Virus record (IMG/VR): IMGVR_UViG_2548876964_000024
Span: 1-27,437 of that record
DNA length: 27,437 nt
Source: a virus
Lineage: Duplodnaviria > Heunggongvirae > Uroviricota > Caudoviricetes
Strand: one strand, 5' to 3'
Positions 14 through 24,913 of this stretch are shown here, piece after piece. The position numbers and the translations under genes are program-made. How positions within the stretch are numbered: the first letter of the stretch is position 1; each line of letters begins with the position of its first letter. A model generated the notes under the pieces. That model searched no databases and was not told where the DNA came from. It saw only the letters and a list, made by a program, of their open reading frames with translations.

Positions 14-89
14 TGGTGCCGATTAACGGGATCGAACCGCTGACCATTCGCTTACAAAGCGACTGCTCTACCAACTGAGCTAAATCGGC
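14..89 (-). tRNA. tRNA-Thr (anticodon UGU), CCA encoded
   Basis: Reverse complement folds as cloverleaf: 7-bp acceptor stem GCCGATT/AATCGGC, T-loop TTCGATC, anticodon loop TTTGTAA (U33, anticodon TGT), 3' discriminator A + CCA. Differs from E. coli chromosomal Thr tRNAs as I recall them. Confidence 0.75.
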
Positions 90-93
90 AATG

Positions 94-180
94 TGGTGGG
101 GAGTGATGGAGTCGAACCACCCGAGTCGCAATGACAGTAGATTTACAGTCTACCCCGCTACCCCTACGGACTAACTCCCC
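94..180 (-). tRNA. tRNA-Tyr (anticodon GUA), type II with long variable arm, CCA encoded
   Basis: Reverse complement: acceptor stem GGGGAGT/ACTCCCC, anticodon stem GTAGA/TCTAC with loop CTGTAAA (anticodon GTA), long variable arm, T-loop TTCGACT, 3' ACCA. Confidence 0.7.
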
Positions 181-185
181 TAAAG

Positions 186-260
186 TGGCGATGGTGGGTG
201 GATTCGAACTACCGACCAGTTGGTTAACAGCCAACTGCTCTACCGCTGAGCTACACCATC
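186..260 (-). tRNA. tRNA-Asn (anticodon GUU), CCA encoded
   Basis: Reverse complement: acceptor stem GATGGTG/CACCATC, D-arm GCTCAGCGGTAGAGC, anticodon stem GTTGG/CCAAC with loop CTGTTAA (anticodon GTT), T-loop TTCGAAT, 3' GCCA. Confidence 0.8.
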
Positions 261-925: not shown

Positions 926-942
926 AAATTTATTAGAGCAAT
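926..942 (-). promoter_or_regulatory. C1 repressor operator-like site (17/17 match to ATTGCTCTAATAAATTT on minus strand)
   Basis: Plus strand reads AAATTTATTAGAGCAAT, the exact reverse complement of the P1 C1 operator consensus as I recall it. Overlaps the dmt stop codon and lies upstream of the minus-strand tRNA cluster. Confidence 0.6.
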
Positions 943-3900
943 ATACCCAAAACGTCATGAGCTACACCTCGAGTGTCCCCCTTACAAGACACAGAACGTC
1001 TGGCAAAAAGAGGTTCCACTCTGAAGCCACTGTCATGATAAAGCTCTCTGATGTTTGGCGCGCCACTGTTAGTAATGAGAACCTTTGCACCTCGACGATG
1101 AGCATCCGTCAACAGAGACACCAGGCGTTTTTGCTCTTCAAACTTAAAGTCATGACCGGAATAGTTCGTGAATCCCTCTGTATTTGGAAGCGGTTCATAC
1201 GGCGGATCGCAAAAGATTACATCTCCTTCTCCGGCAGCTTCAATCACCGCTGCAAAATCACCGCATACAAACTCAGACCGCCCTTCCGCACCGAGGAAGG
1301 CTTCCATCTCCTGTAATGGGAAATACGGAGTTTTATACTTCCCATAACCGACATTGAACTCACCGGCCTGGTTGTAACGCGTCAATCCGTTAAAACAATG
1401 TCGGTTCAGGAACAAAAACGCCGCTGCGCGATGTAAATCATCATAGACTTGTTTGTTAAACGCATTCCGTACTGCCAGGTATCCTTCCTGTGTGTTGTAG
1501 TCCTGGAAGAAACGATGTGCCAGAGTGATAAGTGAATGCGCCTCGCGTTGCAGAGTCTTGTAAAAGTTAATCAGGTCAGCATTCACATCATTTAGCAGAT
1601 TTTCCTGGTATCCGGCATTCATGAAGACAGCTCCGCCACCAACGAAAGGTTCAATCAGGCGCTTCCCTTCTGGCAAATAGCGAAAGATTTGTTCCAGAAC
1701 ACCAAATTTTCCACCAGCCCATTTGAATATGGACCGTTCGAATTCTGCCGCTGGTTTAACTTTTCGCTCTTTTGTTTCACTTCCTTCTTTCTGCCGACAT
1801 ACGGCCTTAGTAATCCGATCGCCAATCCAGCGCATTACTGGTATTGCCATACTATTGCCGATCGCTTTGTAACGCGGTCCGTCAGCTGCAAGCATCGCGG
1901 CCTCTTCTTCGCTTAAATCTGGATAGTGATTGCGAAGGTATGCCAGTTCATCTGAAGAAACTTTTTTACGCTTTTCCGTCGGGATCAACGTATGCCCCTC
2001 AGGAAAACCTTGCAGCCTTTCACATTCGACAGGGGTAAGACGGCGGACAGCTACTTCTGCGTTTCTTACTTCATAGCAAACAGCTGTTGGATTTTTAGCC
2101 ATTAGAGATGGTGAAGTATTCTTAGTTGCAGCATGTTGTGTACCGCTCATACGCTCAGGAAAAGCCAATGTAACAAGATGCTCATGGCTTTCTTGCTCAC
2201 GTGCCCGCAATGTACCATGCCCTTCTGACCAAAAACCTGCTCCTGTGCTGCTAAAAACGGCAAGGTCAGTGGCATCTTTAAAATCTCTTGCCTTTACTGT
2301 CGATGCGGTTTCATCGTCAATATATTCCCCAAATGCTGCCATCCTGAAAGCGTTTACGGCTTTCGTCGATTTCATACCGGGTGGCATGTCAGCGTGTAGG
2401 CATGGATTTAGGCTTTCGCCACTGATTGCAGCGCCATTTGCAATAATGGCGGAAGCGATTTCCTTCTTTTTTCGGCTCGGCGCAATATTCCGGCGCACGC
2501 CTTCGAACTCAAAAAGTACCGTTGCGGGATCGAGATCTGTTCGAGCACTTGCGACAACAAACACGCGTCGGCGTCGTTGTGCCACTCCGAAGTATTGGGC
2601 ATCAAGGATTCTCCAGGCCACTTTTCGCTGCGGTCCATAAATACAACCACACTGCGGCCACTTTGGAACATGGCAACCGGTTTTGCCATCCCACCGCCAG
2701 AACGCGTTGCTTTTTCCTGATTCAGGTCGATCACCTGGTTCAAATGGCACATCTTCTCCAGCCAATCCGGCAAGGAAACATCCGAAGGCGTTATCTGCCG
2801 ATGACAAGACTCCTGGGACATTTTCCCAGACGATAACGGCTGGTTTGAGAAATGACTCAGCCCGTTTGTCGTCAATTGCATTTGCAAGCTCCACATACTT
2901 TAAAGTTAGCGCGCCACGCTCATCATCAAGCCCACCACGTAATCCCGCGATACTGAATGCCTGACAGTTATGGACCACCGCACCATTGAGGATATAGGAA
3001 TGATCACCTTCGACTTCTATGTTGTATACAGTATCTAGGCCTACCGATTTAAACTCTTTGACTGTTCGTAAAAGCATTCCATGAGCCAATCTTGATTTAC
3101 GTGACAATTTCTGCGGGCAGATTGTTACCTGATAATAATTCCGTTGATTTACCACGCGATCCTCGATCACTTTTTTGGGCTCAACTTCAATAAAGCTGAC
3201 CGAAGAAACATAACCACAAGTCTGTGACAACCCCGCAACGCCCCAAGCAAGCGCAGAACTAACACTATTAATTCTAAATCCCGCTTTACCACTTGGTGTC
3301 CCATCAGTATCAAGATAGCCTTGTAAAAACACATGACGCAATGGATGCGACATCACCCATGCAGGGATACGCTTAGCATGGCTTAACTCGCCAAAATGTT
3401 CATTAAGCCAATTGGCATAACACGTATCATTCAAGGTTACTTTGATGCTCCCTCGGATTTCGCTTGCCACGGAAAATATGTTTTCTGGTATGCGGCAATG
3501 AAACTTTCTCAATTTCTGGCAATTTATGCCAAAAACAACCGCCTTCTTAGATTTACCTCTCCATCTCCTAATATATCCATCGCCAACATAAGCGCCCGCA
3601 AGATACATAGCCTGTTCTTCAGACAAGAACCGAGAACAAATATCTGGAAATGCAATATTGAAATTAGTTAGAGCGCACCATTGATATCCCGGCATATCAC
3701 ATGCTGCTCGCCATTCCGGTTCAGACAACAACTCTCTCTTAAAATATGTGCCATTTTTCCGGGTGTTTTGGGCTTTCCACCGAACAGCCAGGAAGGGATG
3801 GTCATTGGTTGTTCTTATACCTAAAGGCTGCCCAACGGCATTAAGTAACCCCGTATTAGCTATTTTTGAACCAACTCTTTTTACTTGTTGTAACCGCCCG

Positions 3901-4220
3901 AGATGACTGACTACGTAATCACCAGGGCAAACATTTTCTATTGGTTTATAGCCATTTTTACAAAGAACCATATGCCCCGCGGTAAAACATGGTGTTCCCC
4001 CGACGAGCACGTCAGGGGATTCGATTTCCCCAGCCAAGACTTTTTTGGCAAGTTTTTTCATGTCGCCAAGGTTGGCAACATGGGGCCAGCGGAGCGCAAG
4101 AACGGCCGATGGAAAAGGCTCGATTTCAGCAAACCACGCCGGACGCATACCCAACGGTTCCCAGGCAATACTCGCGGCTTCAATTCCACTGCAAACAGAT
4201 CCATAGCACAGCTCTTTCAC
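933..4220 (-). CDS. dmt: Bifunctional DNA methyltransferase Dmt-like: N-terminal C5-cytosine MTase domain (interrupted by an intein) fused to C-terminal Dam-type N6-adenine MTase domain; 1095 aa, GTG start
   Basis: C5-MTase motifs: motif [12 protein letters not shown], Pro-Cys motif GGTP/C-QAFS split by the intein, ENV motif [16 protein letters not shown], motif [12 protein letters not shown]-terminal Dam motifs: [41 protein letters not shown] start overlaps the upstream gene stop (GTGA); SD-like GGAGAGG upstream. Confidence 0.85.
2967..3989 (-). mobile_element. Intein (341 aa; Hint splicing domain + LAGLIDADG homing endonuclease) inserted in the C5-MTase Pro-Cys motif of dmt
   Basis: In-frame insert begins Cys (CFTAGHMVL, block A), has block [11 protein letters not shown] (T-x-x-H), two LAGLIDADG motifs ([12 protein letters not shown] and [11 protein letters not shown]), blocks [23 protein letters not shown], and is followed by +1 Cys of CQAFS. 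Excision restores GGTPCQAFS and leaves a 754-aa protein. Confidence 0.8.
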
Positions 4221-5122: not shown

Positions 5123-5462
5123 GTTGTAACCCTTGAATATCAACCACAGAAAGCTCGTCTTTGTAGAAAAAGGCCAGGTTGTGGCACCCCCTCGTTTGAG
5201 CGTATGAGCTGGGACCAATTTCGTTCTTCCAGACAAATGGCTTCAAATCCGTACGGCGAAGCATAAAAACGCGATTTATTCCGCTCTGATTCCCAATGAG
5301 GCAAAAGCCTTCTTTCACCTTGATAGCCTGCAAGTTGTCGAGTTCACCGCTGGTTACACGGCTATCGAACTCTTTGCGGCTTATTAGCTCCATCTGCATC
5401 TGACGACTCCAAACAAATGCCCATTGAAGGGCGATGGCTGAATGGTACCGAAAATACGACAT
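5115..5462 (-). CDS. Hypothetical protein, first gene of the C1-controlled hrdC-dmt operon (possibly uhr-like), 115 aa
   Basis: ORF with ATG at 5462 immediately downstream of the C1 operator at 5471-5487; overlaps the hrdC start. No recognisable domain. Confidence 0.45.
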
Positions 5463-5470
5463 AAAAAACA

Positions 5471-5487
5471 ATATTTATTAGAGCAAT
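5471..5487 (-). promoter_or_regulatory. C1 repressor operator-like site (16/17 match) in divergent promoter region
   Basis: Plus strand ATATTTATTAGAGCAAT, one mismatch to the reverse complement of ATTGCTCTAATAAATTT; sits 9 nt upstream of the minus-strand operon start codon. Confidence 0.6.
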
Positions 5488-5568
5488 TTTGCGATAAGTA
5501 AACGCCATACAGACCACAAATAACCTAAGTTAAAATAACGAAAATCAGAGCAAATAATTGGTGATGGC

Positions 5569-5853
5569 GTGGCAAGCATTGCAACAAAAGACAGCATTTG
5601 TTCGGGGCACGGAGGATTCCCATCCAGGCCTCCTGTAGAGAGTGAACCACTACTTAAAGTCAACGGAGTCGAAGTGTTAGTTGATGGTAAGCAATATGCA
5701 CCGCATACCGATGGAAACAGTACGCACGGTGGGCAAGCTATATCAACCAGGGCATGGTTTACCGTCAATGGTAAAGGGATCGTATGCGTTGGTGACCCTG
5801 TTTCATGCGGATCTACCGTAGCGTCCGGAGACGGCCTGGTTCAGGTAAGTTAG
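5569..5853 (+). CDS. Small Cys/His/Gly-rich protein with PAAR-like features (possible tail-spike tip protein), 94 aa, GTG start
   Basis: Repeated G-x-V-x-VNG / VGD-x-x-x-CG / GS-x-V elements (ICSGHGG, VNGVEVLVDG, THGG, FTVNGKGIVCVGDPVSCGSTVASGDGLVQV) resembling the PAAR / PAAR-like fold. Weak RBS; start uncertain. Confidence 0.4.
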   Translation: MASIATKDSICSGHGGFPSRPPVESEPLLKVNGVEVLVDGKQYAPHTDGNSTHGGQAISTRAWFTVNGKGIVCVGDPVSCGSTVASGDGLVQVS

Positions 5854-5861
5854 GAGATATC

Positions 5862-6650
5862 ATGCTGGAAAAAGACTACCAGTTATCCGCATATAAAAAA
5901 TTGGCCGCCGCCGGTGGGATGAAAACACCTGGTGCCATAACATCGGCACGAAACAGTGCTAACACAGCAAAACTGCTTGCAGAAGAATTGACCGGATTAA
6001 TTCTGGATACAATTGTCTATCCCGACACTATTACCAGCTATGTTTCAACGATCAGAACAACCACAACCGGCTTAACGAACATTGGAGAACTGGCAACTAA
6101 GCACGCGGACCTGTTGGCTGGTTATGCAGATCTGTCAATGCTGCTTCAACTCGATATTGGTTGGGATGTTTACTGCCGTGCTAATGAGCGAGAAGTTTCA
6201 GAACTGCCGATCTCTATTGCCATTGGTGATGTGAATATTACTAAATCGCTTGAGGACGCTGTTAACGCGCTTAATACATCAAGTTTAGTCGCTGCAATGG
6301 GGGAGATTAACCAGGCCCTTAACACTGGCTCAGAAAGCTCGTCAGGCTCTGGTTCAGGCGGCGGCACTGCCACTCCCCCACCAGCACTAACAGAAGAGCA
6401 AATTGAATCTCTGAAAGTAGCAACTGAACAGTTTGGGGTTGTTTTCAACCAGACAACAGCACCCACAACTGCGTTACAACAGCAGTATGAACGAGCGAAT
6501 GAAAGCGCCAACGTAGCCATAACTGCTTATAACCATGCTATCGGTACCGCGCTTGCGGAAGCATCAGCAAATAAGGCCAGCACAGCCAGCGCAGTCGCCG
6601 CTTTGGTTCCTGATTCTGTTCTTGATGAATTAAACAAAGCGGCACGGTAA
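5862..6650 (+). CDS. Hypothetical protein with Gly/Ser-rich linker (SESSSGSGSGGGTATPPP), 262 aa
   Basis: ATG at 5862 preceded by TAGGAGATATC; long ORF in a gene-dense plus-strand block; no recognisable catalytic motif. Confidence 0.5.
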   Translation: MLEKDYQLSAYKKLAAAGGMKTPGAITSARNSANTAKLLAEELTGLILDTIVYPDTITSYVSTIRTTTTGLTNIGELATKHADLLAGYADLSMLLQLDIGWDVYCRANEREVSELPISIAIGDVNITKSLEDAVNALNTSSLVAAMGEINQALNTGSESSSGSGSGGGTATPPPALTEEQIESLKVATEQFGVVFNQTTAPTTALQQQYERANESANVAITAYNHAIGTALAEASANKASTASAVAALVPDSVLDELNKAAR

Positions 6651-6689
6651 CAAAGGACTTCATTGATAATTTTTCTTCAGGAGGAAGAC

Positions 6690-7112
6690 ATGTCATTCTT
6701 TTCTACGTTAAAAACAGCTTTGTCTTTGAAGGAGAAACTTGCTGCTACTGGTGTTCTTGTTCTGATTTGCGCACTTGTTGGTGCTGGGTTTGCATGGGAA
6801 CGTCATCAGCTAAAGCAAGCCATGGAGAAAATTGGCAGTCTTGATCAGGCTGTTAAGGAACGTGATAAGTCAATAATGGATCTTAACCAGACCATTGAGA
6901 CGATGAACAAAGCAGATCAACATTTTCACAGCCAGGAAGTGAAAAATGAATCAGAACAAGCCAAGTATGCTGACAGGCAAATGGAACGAAAAGCAGAAGT
7001 TCAGAAACAACTGGTTGCGGCGGGTAATGTTCGCCAGCGCATTCCTGCTGACACTCAGCGGTTGCTCCGGGAGTCGATCAGCGAATTTAACGCCGACGCC
7101 GACAAAGGTTAA
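6690..7112 (+). CDS. i-spanin (Rz-like): N-terminal TM anchor plus periplasmic coiled coil, 140 aa
   Basis: ATG after AGGAGGAAGAC; N-terminal hydrophobic helix (LAATGVLVLICALVGAGFAW) followed by charged, helical periplasmic region; contains an embedded +1-frame lipoprotein ORF. Confidence 0.6.
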   Translation: MSFFSTLKTALSLKEKLAATGVLVLICALVGAGFAWERHQLKQAMEKIGSLDQAVKERDKSIMDLNQTIETMNKADQHFHSQEVKNESEQAKYADRQMERKAEVQKQLVAAGNVRQRIPADTQRLLRESISEFNADADKG

Positions 7113-7278
7113 CCACCCTGCCCCCAAAAGTGCGTTTATGTGCAGGATGCCAGAGTTTAGCAGTGAATATTTTGATGATCTGCCAGCCTATATCCTTGAT
7201 ACAGAAACGATGCTGATGGGGATTAACAGGAAGAATCGCAACGTTAATGATTACAACCGCGCTATCAGCGGTAACTAA
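7027..7278 (+). CDS. o-spanin (Rz1-like outer-membrane lipoprotein), overlapped architecture, 83 aa
   Basis: Signal peptide with lipobox MFASAFLLTLSG-C; Pro-rich mature region; starts inside the i-spanin gene in the +1 frame and extends 166 nt past its stop. Confidence 0.6.
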   Translation: MFASAFLLTLSGCSGSRSANLTPTPTKVNHPAPKSAFMCRMPEFSSEYFDDLPAYILDTETMLMGINRKNRNVNDYNRAISGN

Positions 7279-7289
7279 AAGGGATTTTT

Positions 7290-7682
7290 ATGTCTGATAA
7301 AGTAACAGTAAAGCAAACTATCAACAAAGCGACTTCAATCTACAAAATTGAGCAAATCACTGTTGGCAAGCCAGGATCTGAACAATACCGTCATGCTTTC
7401 GAGCTTGCCGATCAGCTTGGTTTAAAACACCCGGATTGCATCGAGCATGTATTTCCGACCTATGCTGATGAGCAATGTACTCATGTTCTTACCGAAGAGG
7501 ATTTTTTCAGCACTGAAGAACGAGAAGGCGTTGATCGTTGCATTGGTGTGATTTGCTCTTCAGTGAGTTATGAGTTATTCCCTAATGTCCATGAAAATGG
7601 TGGTATTGGATACCAATTTCTGTACGAAGGCGATGAGCTTAAATGTTATGAACATGGTCTTCTTATCGAAAGCGTAGAATAA
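7290..7682 (+). CDS. Hypothetical protein, 130 aa
   Basis: ATG after AAAAGGGA; ORF followed by an intrinsic terminator. Confidence 0.5.
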   Translation: MSDKVTVKQTINKATSIYKIEQITVGKPGSEQYRHAFELADQLGLKHPDCIEHVFPTYADEQCTHVLTEEDFFSTEEREGVDRCIGVICSSVSYELFPNVHENGGIGYQFLYEGDELKCYEHGLLIESVE

Positions 7683-9192: not shown

Positions 9193-10002
9193 ATGCAAGA
9201 AGAGAAACAACACTACCTCTACGTTCTGGTGCCGGAGAATGGAGATACTTTTAAAATCGGCATTTCATGTGGTCCATTGGCACGGTTTAAAGGGCTACAA
9301 GTGAGTCCCGATTTTGCGCTTTCACGGGTCTATCGTGGTACGCGTTTGGCAATAGTTAATCTTGAGCGGGCTTTACACGCAACCTTTTTCCCCTGGAATG
9401 CGCCGTGGGAGAAAAGCGCCGGTGGCGGGCATACTGAATGGTTTACACGAGAGTGTCTTGATAAGGTTTTGGCTCATATCGAATATCTAAATGATATGTG
9501 GGGAGGGATTCTCGAGCGCATTAAGTCGAATGATTTACTTCAGCGTCCAGTAGATGCTGCTCGCTCTTTCGAAAAAGAGCTGGATGTTACTTCTATCGTG
9601 ACTTTCAAAGATGACGCAGGAATGAGGGACGTGGCTTATGTCTCCATATCTGGCTATGAACCGGACGCGATCCGCGCTCAATGTGAATTGCTGAAAGCAA
9701 TGTTTATGCTTCGGACTAAATATCCCTGGGAGACAAGGCGGGTGTGCTTCCCTATGGAAGAGTTAACCGCCACCATTGATTCCCAGCTTTACCACGATAA
9801 TCCAGAGAAGTTTTTTAGCCTTTTAGCCGGTAATGGGCTTAACTGTGTGTCCGGGCTGGGGCGAAGTAGAATCCAACATGCCTCGCTCTTCGGTCCCTTC
9901 TTTTACGATCGACACGGGTACTTTGAGGCTGAACTTCCGGCGCTTACGCGTGCTATAGATACTATCGATTTCGAACGATTATTCGCTGCTCTTAGCAAAT
10001 AA
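9193..10002 (+). CDS. Hypothetical protein with N-terminal T5orf172 / GIY-YIG-like motif (possibly upfA-like), 269 aa
   Basis: N-terminus HYLYVLVPENGDTFKIGIS...LARFKGL resembles the T5orf172/GIY-YIG-like fold; lies between repA iterons and the parA operator. Confidence 0.5.
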   Translation: MQEEKQHYLYVLVPENGDTFKIGISCGPLARFKGLQVSPDFALSRVYRGTRLAIVNLERALHATFFPWNAPWEKSAGGGHTEWFTRECLDKVLAHIEYLNDMWGGILERIKSNDLLQRPVDAARSFEKELDVTSIVTFKDDAGMRDVAYVSISGYEPDAIRAQCELLKAMFMLRTKYPWETRRVCFPMEELTATIDSQLYHDNPEKFFSLLAGNGLNCVSGLGRSRIQHASLFGPFFYDRHGYFEAELPALTRAIDTIDFERLFAALSK

Positions 10003-20920: not shown

Positions 20921-20937
20921 AAATTTATTAGAGCAAA
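20921..20937 (-). promoter_or_regulatory. C1 operator-like site (16/17), Op53-type, at the kilA-repL promoter
   Basis: Plus strand AAATTTATTAGAGCAAA, 70 nt upstream of the kilA start on the minus strand. Confidence 0.6.
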
Positions 20938-22955: not shown

Positions 22956-22972
22956 AAAATAATTAGAGCAAC
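22956..22972 (-). promoter_or_regulatory. C1 operator-like site (14/17), Op51-type, at immI promoter
   Basis: Minus-sense GTTGCTCTAATTATTTT versus consensus ATTGCTCTAATAAATTT. Confidence 0.4.
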
Positions 22973-24019: not shown

Positions 24020-24913
24020 TTAAGATGTTGTGTTATAACAGTCTGTTTCTTCAAAGCAATGGGTCAGGTTATTGATCACAGGTTCTCCTTTCTCGTGTCT
24101 GAGAATAAGAGAGCCTCCATTAGTAGACCATTTATCTGAAACAGCAACAAAATTACAGAAGCAGCTACTCCCTGAAATTTCTCTTGCAATTCTTATAAAA
24201 TGAAATGCTCTAACTTCGAGACCTGGAACAATTTGTCCAAGACATTCTCTCATTGAATCTTCATCAAAGTCTCCATTTATTATTCCTGAACAGATAAACT
24301 CATAATAATTAAGAACGAAGAACATATCATTACCTGCTGATATGTATTTATCATGGACCTTTTTATCTTTTAAATCTTTATCATTTGGGATAAGTCTTTG
24401 TTTGGCAATAATTTCATTTATGGTTTTTCTAAGCCCGAACGTATTCGCTACCGATGAGACTTTTTTGTGAAATAATTCACTGTTTCTTTGATTCATTAGT
24501 GTATTTAAGGTGTGTGATTTTCTTGCGGCTACTTTACTCACAGTAGCCTGAACCCACCACCCAGAACCAAGTAGCACAGAACTTATAAGTAAAGCAATTG
24601 TGGATTGGTATACATCACCATATAAATAATATAATATAAATACACTATATAGCGTTACACCAAAGATTAAAGCTATAATGGTAATCCCATCGTTTGTTTC
24701 TGGGTATTTTTTTGCTATCTTTTCCTTTATCGTTATGCTGATAAAGGCGGAGAAGAACGCAAACATTAAGAATGGTAAAACTTCATCGAGAGAAAAAGAT
24801 AATGTTTTCTTGATAATATCTTCTCGAGATTCAAATATCATGAAAAAAAGTAATGAGAGAAAAAAAGTTAAGTGAGTATATTTATGTTTTATGTATTTCT
24901 GTAAAGAATGCAT
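24020..24913 (-). CDS. Membrane-anchored protein: N-terminal 3-4 TM helices plus about 160-aa cytoplasmic domain of unknown function (cargo gene C), 297 aa
   Basis: Long AT-rich ORF convergent with genes A/B; hydrophobic N-terminal third; no recognisable catalytic motif. Confidence 0.55.
   Translation of the reverse strand: MHSLQKYIKHKYTHLTFFLSLLFFMIFESREDIIKKTLSFSLDEVLPFLMFAFFSAFISITIKEKIAKKYPETNDGITIIALIFGVTLYSVFILYYLYGDVYQSTIALLISSVLLGSGWWVQATVSKVAARKSHTLNTLMNQRNSELFHKKVSSVANTFGLRKTINEIIAKQRLIPNDKDLKDKKVHDKYISAGNDMFFVLNYYEFICSGIINGDFDEDSMRECLGQIVPGLEVRAFHFIRIAREISGSSCFCNFVAVSDKWSTNGGSLILRHEKGEPVINNLTHCFEETDCYNTTS

Follow-up and report, generated by a model that had tools for sequence, protein, structure and literature searches.

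We found that the open reading frame at 5569..5853 (+) is almost certainly upfC of a P1-like myovirus (Punavirus) and that it encodes the PAAR-fold protein at the tip of the tail spike. The open reading frame lies in a window, that is, the whole stretch of DNA that was analyzed, of 27,437 nucleotides. The initial annotation, made from the letters of the window, had proposed a PAAR-like spike-tip protein such as those of myoviruses. Profile matches, the predicted fold, invariant ligand residues and published cryo-EM work all bear out this proposal, which confirms that a PAAR spike tip can be recognized from the sequence alone. The role of UpfC as a spike tip was already known: upfC has been named since 2004, recognized as encoding a homologue of T4 gp5.4, and deleted, and its product has been solved in the virion. 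The identity of UpfC, its fold, its ligands, its position on the spike and its non-essentiality are established by the solved structure, by homology or by published genetics. In addition, we infer that UpfC has a conditional role in penetration and that a second protein, UpfB, docks on it.

We compared positions 5300-7300 of the window to sequenced phages. This region was 99.7% identical to Escherichia phage vB_EcoM-Ro157c2YLVW in a full-length match, 98.1% identical to a recent P1 isolate, 95.6% identical to the P1 reference NC_005856, and 95.0% identical to P7. Transfer of coordinates from NC_005856 placed upfC (P1_gp066) at 5569..5853. The product is a Punavirus UpfC orthologue. Its sequence is near-identical, its length and start are the same, and the gene order uhr/Odmt - upfC - upfB - ppfA/mlp - upfA is conserved, also in the closest relative, vB_EcoM-Ro157c2YLVW. 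Compared to P1 UpfC (P1_gp066; PDB 9VYI chain A), 92 of the 94 residues are identical, and the only differences are P45Q and S86A. The P1 gene has the same length, the same GTG start, the same neighbors and the same upstream C1 operator. The phage that was imaged is a P1 isolate, whereas the phage in the window is a P1 relative, closest here to vB_EcoM-Ro157c2YLVW.

The open reading frame had been suggested to be unannotated. This is correct for some records, including that of the closest relative (MH160767), which is without an upfC call. It is not correct for the P1 reference, in which upfC, with a note of 31% identity to T4 ORF 5.4, has been present since 2004. The RefSeq product name for P1 upfC is 'PAAR motif of membran proteins'. 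We also noticed several irregular records. An identical upfC gene is uncalled in one Salmonella assembly (L003), UpfC homologues in many NCBI records are named 'alanine racemase', PDB 9F4B deposits the T4-like counterpart of UpfC as 'Phospholipase', and PHROG 281, although a virion protein, is categorized as 'moron, auxiliary metabolic gene and host takeover'. That is, upfC is still missed or misnamed in many records.

UpfC matched PAAR profiles and known PAAR structures. The protein from the window matched PHROG 281 ('PAAR motif') with an E-value of 5e-31 and Pfam PF05488 (PAAR_motif) with an E-value of 1.5e-5; the latter match, at 25.5 bits, is 1.5 bits short of the gathering cut-off of 27. 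All of the aligned UpfC homologues (28/28) matched PF05488, the best with an E-value of 2.4e-21. Thus the PAAR profile check proposed in the initial annotation came out in favor of a PAAR protein. In a sequence search of solved structures, the best match was 9vyi_A, deposited as 'UpfC' (E 1.2e-59, 92/94 residues identical). The same search matched UpfC to T4 gp5.4 (5iv5/4ku0; E about 2e-7) and to the Vibrio cholerae PAAR protein VCA0105 (4jiv; E 3e-5).

Structure prediction, which had also been proposed, gave a PAAR cone. The AlphaFold2 model of UpfC, made from a 28-sequence alignment, is all-beta with a pLDDT of 96.6 and has the conical PAAR fold, with three beta-hairpins around a pseudo-threefold axis. 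Using Foldseek, we found that the model aligned to solved P1 UpfC (9VYI) with a TM-score of 0.97 and a deviation of 0.7 Å. The TM-score was 0.91 to c1882 (4JIW_D), 0.89 to VCA0105 (4JIV_D) and 0.87 to T4 gp5.4 (4KU0_D), and the Foldseek probability was 1.00 for all four structures.

Three His residues and one Cys near the apex of the cone are predicted to bind a metal. His14, His46, His53 and Cys80 of UpfC do not vary among 28 homologues, the most distant of which is 39% identical, and each aligns with its counterpart in T4 gp5.4. The codon for His14 (5608..5610, +) aligns with the GH of T4 gp5.4, that for His46 (5704..5706, +) with the His of 'EHT', and that for His53 (5725..5727, +), in THGG, with 'THGG'. 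The codon for Cys80 (5806..5808, +), in DPVSCG, aligns with 'DPISCG' and is part of an invariant block, D76-P77-x-S79-C80-G81-S82. The literal Pro-Ala-Ala-Arg tetrapeptide is absent from the UpfC sequence. Candidate equivalents of the PAAR motif are F-P18-S-R20, A-P45-H46 and D76-P77-V-S79. Among the 28 homologues, R20, D76, P77 and S79 are invariant and P18 is nearly so; P45 varies, being Q in P1.

Published work on P1 places UpfC on the spike. In a 3.2 Å map of the baseplate, UpfC was built manually, with one monomer on the gp5 trimer (PMC12810830, 2026; PDB 9VYI). In a separate report, UpfC forms the tip of the gp5 needle in an AlphaFold2 multimer model that was placed in the map (preprint bioRxiv 10.1101/2025.07.21.665459, 2025). 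Gonzales et al. 2022 had found an HHpred match between UpfC and T4 gp5.4, and their ΔupfC phage formed plaques normally (PMC9024508). UpfC was undetected by LC-MS/MS of purified P1 virions, which the authors attributed to there being one small copy per virion (PMC9024508). Deletion or knock-down of P1 upfC and upfB left plating unaffected (PMC9024508, PMC10695390), and upfC, upfB, upfA, ppfA and mlp all scored as non-essential in a CRISPRi screen (PMC10695390). That is, plaques form without upfC in the laboratory.

The T4 counterpart has also been studied. T4 gp5.4 binds iron through a His3Cys site, and the substitution H14A abolishes binding to the gp5 spike (PMC12407873). Injection of DNA into deep-rough LPS mutants requires T4 gp5.4, and gp5.4 and UpfC are the only pair of T4 and P1 tail proteins detectable by BLAST (PMC12407873). 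By analogy with T4 gp5.4, UpfC is probably important when DNA is delivered into hosts whose envelope is altered.

The mechanism best supported by these data is as follows. One copy of UpfC would sit with its flat base on the blunt end of the trimeric beta-helical gp5 spike, at the center of the baseplate. His14, His46, His53 and Cys80 would form a tetrahedral metal site that holds the tip of the cone together. Capped in this way, the gp5 spike would be sharpened, with UpfC as the metal-stabilized point of a membrane-piercing device. Upon contraction of the sheath, gp5 and UpfC would pierce the outer membrane in front of the tail tube and would then be shed. UpfC may also be the docking point for UpfB, with three trimers on the tip.

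UpfB is encoded by the next gene downstream (5862..6650, +), and appears to be a 262-aa all-alpha protein with a Gly/Ser linker. In the AlphaFold2 model of UpfB, 11 helices are arranged in two blocks, with a disordered Gly/Ser linker (residues 159-169) between them. The predicted structure had only generic helical-bundle similarities to known structures, and profile searches indicated that the UpfB family is small and narrow. The initial annotation had upfC overlapping the start region of the next open reading frame, and we found this to be the case. The upfC stop codon TAG (5851-5853) shares bases with the Shine-Dalgarno sequence of upfB, AGGAG (5852..5856, +), which is 5 nt upstream of the upfB ATG at 5862. 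From this arrangement, upfC and upfB are predicted to be translationally coupled.

The start of upfB is different in the P1 reference. There, upfB starts at ATG 5805 and encodes 281 aa; this start is inside upfC, with a 49-nt overlap that covers the Cys80 codon. We favor ATG 5862 because all of the full-length UpfB homologues start at the methionine encoded there (MLEKDYQL or MLSTTNQL), because the PHROG 1559 profile aligns to UpfB residues 1-262, and because AGGAG is 5 nt upstream. In addition, an exhaustive profile search gave 88 representative UpfB clusters whose alignments start at residue 1, and the record of the closest relative, vB_EcoM-Ro157c2YLVW, uses the 262-aa start. The true start of upfB is most likely ATG 5862, which would make the reference gene 19 codons too long (5805..5861, +).

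We compared the upfC-upfB region to that of more distant relatives. In a Salmonella phage-plasmid (L004), UpfC is 68% and UpfB 44% identical to the proteins from the window, and in a metagenomic relative (L007) the values are 56% and 28% (E 1e-24 for UpfB). In both, upfC and upfB adjoin and appear to be coupled, with the junction TAAATTATG in the former and TAATG in the latter. The link between upfC and upfB is kept down to 28% identity of UpfB. In both relatives, the upfC-upfB block is followed by a spanin-sized gene and is just upstream of genes for capsid and sheath, and the repA-par module that is in between in P1 is missing. As a separate observation, the ATG of the upfC homologue in the Salmonella phage-plasmid comes directly after a terminator-like hairpin and T-run (CCCACAG-N11-CTGTGGG-CTTTTTT; 5668..5712 of that contig), and there is no Shine-Dalgarno sequence visible before this ATG.

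It is possible that UpfC is mainly an adaptor, an explanation that we think has a real though less than even chance of being correct. In this case, UpfC would bring UpfB, as an envelope-active cargo or a shield, onto the spike for delivery into the host envelope, much as effectors are carried by the PAAR proteins of type VI secretion systems (T6SS), and sharpening of the spike would be secondary. The initial annotation had raised a PAAR-type adaptor for a cargo protein as an option. Part of this has gained support: a 'tripod' of three trimers on the spike tip has been assigned to UpfB, although by fitting an AlphaFold3 model in medium-resolution density (PMC12810830). The two genes adjoin, with predicted coupling, in the window, in P1 and in both of the relatives described above, even where UpfB is only 28% identical, and they are in the same cluster in more distant relatives. 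UpfB itself is predicted to consist of two helical-bundle domains with a flexible linker, which would fit with this explanation. Based on the medium-resolution fit and the genetic linkage of upfC and upfB, we infer that UpfC could be the docking site for UpfB. We favor the notion that UpfC is the sharpening tip of the spike and that UpfB docks on it.

A broader version of this idea is more tentative, and we consider it somewhat unlikely. UpfC and UpfB may form a conserved module, a PAAR protein plus a docked helical-bundle protein, specific to P1-like phage-plasmids. Nine copies of UpfB on the tip might act on the host envelope, and the module might be essential only on particular hosts or in particular envelope states, as T4 gp5.4 is on deep-rough LPS mutants. 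This action could be membrane insertion, contact with a receptor or with the periplasm, or protection of the tip. Docking of UpfB on the tip has already been proposed (PMC12810830). If true, the UpfC-UpfB module would be the phage counterpart of PAAR-borne T6SS cargo.

The genes around upfC in the window are not those of the tail. As described in the initial annotation, upfC is followed on the plus strand by the gene for a 262-aa protein (UpfB) and then by a spanin pair, PpfA and Mlp. By coordinates from P1, ppfA (6690..7112, +) encodes an Rz-like i-spanin, elsewhere named 'outer membrane lytic protein Rz'. The overlapping gene mlp (6946..7278, +) encodes an Rz1-like o-spanin lipoprotein with a lipobox-like LTLSGC and is the 'Rz-like spanin' of P1. 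Further downstream are upfA, oriR/repA and parAB, and upstream, on the opposite strand, are uhr, hrdC and dmt. The location of upfC away from the tail genes, also remarked on before, is confirmed. Within the window, the tail genes closest to upfC are 22, 21, pmgG and bplB, and the repA-parAB plasmid module lies in between. The spike gene, gene 5, is outside the window, ~10 kb from upfC across ban, the tRNAs and dmt.

In more distant relatives, the homologue of upfC is next to a spike gene. On one contig (L010), a gene for a gp5-like spike (36% identical to P1 gp5, E 9e-39) is followed 4 nt later by the start of a gene for a 94-aa UpfC homologue. Next come four genes, including one for a methyltransferase, then a UpfB homologue, and then capsid and sheath genes. 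The layout is similar in a second distant contig that bears UpfB. In a P2-like tail cluster, without UpfB, a 41%-identical UpfC homologue is encoded between a gpV-like spike and gpW/gp25. Because distant relatives have the UpfC homologue next to the spike gene, this canonical order, spike then tip, is likely ancestral, and the scattered layout in P1 would therefore be a derived rearrangement. That is, the separation of gene 5 and upfC in P1 is probably specific to this lineage and not a sign of a different function.

It is very improbable that UpfC, as a moron or a host-directed PAAR protein, works with a bacterial T6SS and is not part of the virion. The location of upfC, between replication and methylation genes and lysis genes and away from the tail genes, would fit with such a role, as would the category of PHROG 281 given above. 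Homologues are also named as T6SS proteins in several sources, including 'Zn-binding protein involved in type VI secretion' at JGI. However, a role of this kind is contradicted by the solved structure of the P1 baseplate, into which UpfC was built (PDB 9VYI). UpfC scored 37.4 bits against the NCBIfam profile NF033420 (T6SS_PAAR_dom), below its cut-off of 124, and has no effector extension. Moreover, homologues are encoded directly after phage spike genes, and all of the close homologues are on contigs the size of phage-plasmids (~80-100 kb). Based on its score and on its genomic context, in which the neighbors are genes of phage P1, UpfC is not a T6SS PAAR protein.

Several lines of evidence indicate that upfC is a real gene that is read from the GTG. 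As initially described, a GTG-initiated open reading frame of 94 codons ending in TAG is present at 5569..5853 (+), and its translation contains ICSGHGG, VNGVEVLVDG, THGG and FTVNGKGIVCVGDPVSCG. The protein had also been called rich in Gly, Val, Cys and His. This is so for Gly (14 residues) and Val (12 residues), but Cys and His are only modestly enriched (3 residues each). GGTGAT (5560..5565, +), 3 nt upstream of the GTG and identical in P1, reads as Shine-Dalgarno-like; it is complementary to the 3' end of 16S rRNA, which suggests that it works as a ribosome-binding site. We found 71 UpfC homologues with an E-value of 1e-3 or less in a search of 5.8 billion proteins. Nearly all of the 71 are 94 aa and are encoded on contigs of 80-100 kb from Enterobacterales, which is the size of P1-like phage-plasmids. 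The first methionine and a length of ~94 aa are common to all of the 28 aligned homologues (28/28), and distant homologues (relatives with 56-68% protein identity) have ATG at the same start codon. Thus, the gene and its start codon are kept in related phage-plasmids.

Nucleotide changes within upfC also fit with a protein-coding gene. Between the window and P1, 14 of the 16 nucleotide differences in upfC are at third codon positions, and an excess at third positions was also seen against relatives with 56-68% protein identity. Judging from the codon changes relative to P1 (14 synonymous and 2 non-synonymous), upfC is under purifying selection. There is essentially no chance that upfC is a spurious open reading frame with a PAAR resemblance due to Gly/Val-rich composition: it is short, starts with GTG, is uncalled in two annotations (MH160767 and L003) and is overlapped by an antisense open reading frame of similar length (5478..5768), but this notion is refuted by the match to 9VYI, by a confident fold prediction that matches solved structures, by the mostly synonymous, third-position differences from P1, and by the 71 homologues, with their conserved length and invariant ligand residues.

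We also looked for regulatory sequences upstream of upfC. A scan for promoters and terminators around upfC found 3 promoter-like sites, compared to 3.2 in shuffled sequence, that is, no excess. A candidate upfC promoter, TTAAAA-17-AATAAT (5530-5558), is weak, and because such sites were no more common than in shuffled sequence we did not count it as evidence. The operator Odmt (Op68) for the C1 repressor, which belongs to the divergent promoter Pdmt, is at 5471..5487 (-), 82 bp upstream of upfC. It has one mismatch to ATTGCTCTAATAAATTT and is annotated in P1. The window has 5 sites similar to C1 operators, compared to 0.16 expected. Two of these overlap at the 3' end of dmt (915-931, +, 2 mismatches; 926-942, -, exact) and correspond to the bivalent operator Oban annotated in P1. 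Others are at 20921-20937 and 22956-22972.

Several other features of the window are different from those in the P1 reference. Dmt (933..4220, -) is 1095 aa, compared to 754 aa in P1. The difference is an insert of 341 aa (residues 78-418; about 2967..3989 of the window) that starts with Cys and ends with VVHN, followed by Cys. The insert is exactly inside the catalytic motif GTP-C-QAFS of the C5-cytosine methyltransferase half. It matches the Pfam families Hint_2 and LAGLIDADG_3, and its flanks are 96-99% identical to P1 Dmt. The insert resembles an intein that carries a homing endonuclease. When phage records were searched with its DNA (query 2970-3992), it was found only in Ro157c2YLVW, the P1 isolate OP279344 and RCS47. 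A literature search found nothing relevant on an intein in Dmt.

The window also has additional genes. Three tRNA genes, for Thr(tgt), Tyr(gta; 87 nt) and Asn(gtt), are at 14..260 (-), whereas the P1 reference has only tRNA-Asn and tRNA-Thr at the same place, 2 nt apart. The phage in the window therefore has an extra tRNA-Tyr between Asn and Thr, and this tRNA is also annotated in Ro157c2YLVW. An open reading frame of 269 aa with a T5orf172 domain (RefSeq: GIY-YIG nuclease family protein) is at 9193..10002 (+), between repA/incA and parA. In the P1 reference, the gap between incA and parA is about 270 bp and is without an annotated gene. The open reading frame was found with 98.8-99.6% identity in 12 records of P1-like phages, including GenBank/RefSeq duplicates (RCS47, SJ46, JL22, phi456 and others), and the same search gave no match in the reference records of P1 and P7. 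One possibility is that a mobile nuclease gene was inserted in the plasmid maintenance region. Lastly, an open reading frame of 297 aa at 24020..24913 (-) has a DUF4760 domain (E 6e-14).

The spike tip of T4 is among the closest known systems. Like UpfC, T4 gp5.4 (PDB 4KU0, 5IV5) is a monomeric cone of ~95 aa on a trimeric gp5 beta-helix, has a His3Cys site at equivalent positions, and is also non-essential in the laboratory. In contrast, the two proteins are only about 29-31% identical. There is no known UpfB-like tripod in T4 (PMC12810830). Gene 5.4 of T4 adjoins gene 5, whereas upfC is ~10 kb from gene 5 in P1, and P1 gp5 lacks the lysozyme domain.

T6SS PAAR proteins cap a beta-helix of the VgrG/gp5 type, as UpfC does, and some of them are adaptors for attached proteins. 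VCA0105 from V. cholerae and c1882 from Escherichia coli (PDB 4JIV, 4JIW) have the same conical fold as UpfC (TM ~0.9). UpfC differs from them in its context, which is a phage virion, in being without an N- or C-terminal effector extension, and in having degenerate equivalents in place of literal PAAR tetrapeptides.

Two other phage proteins are similar to UpfC. The spike tip of Klebsiella phage KP1/Lilla1 (PDB 9F4B chain BA) matched UpfC with an E-value of 3.4e-11 and a TM-score of 0.93. The spike-tip PAAR protein gp163.1 of phiKZ (PDB 6P1Z) matched the UpfC model in Foldseek with a TM-score of 0.69. Both were solved, as was UpfC, in baseplate or spike complexes. They are from T4-like and jumbo phages, and their spike partners and genomic contexts differ from those of UpfC.
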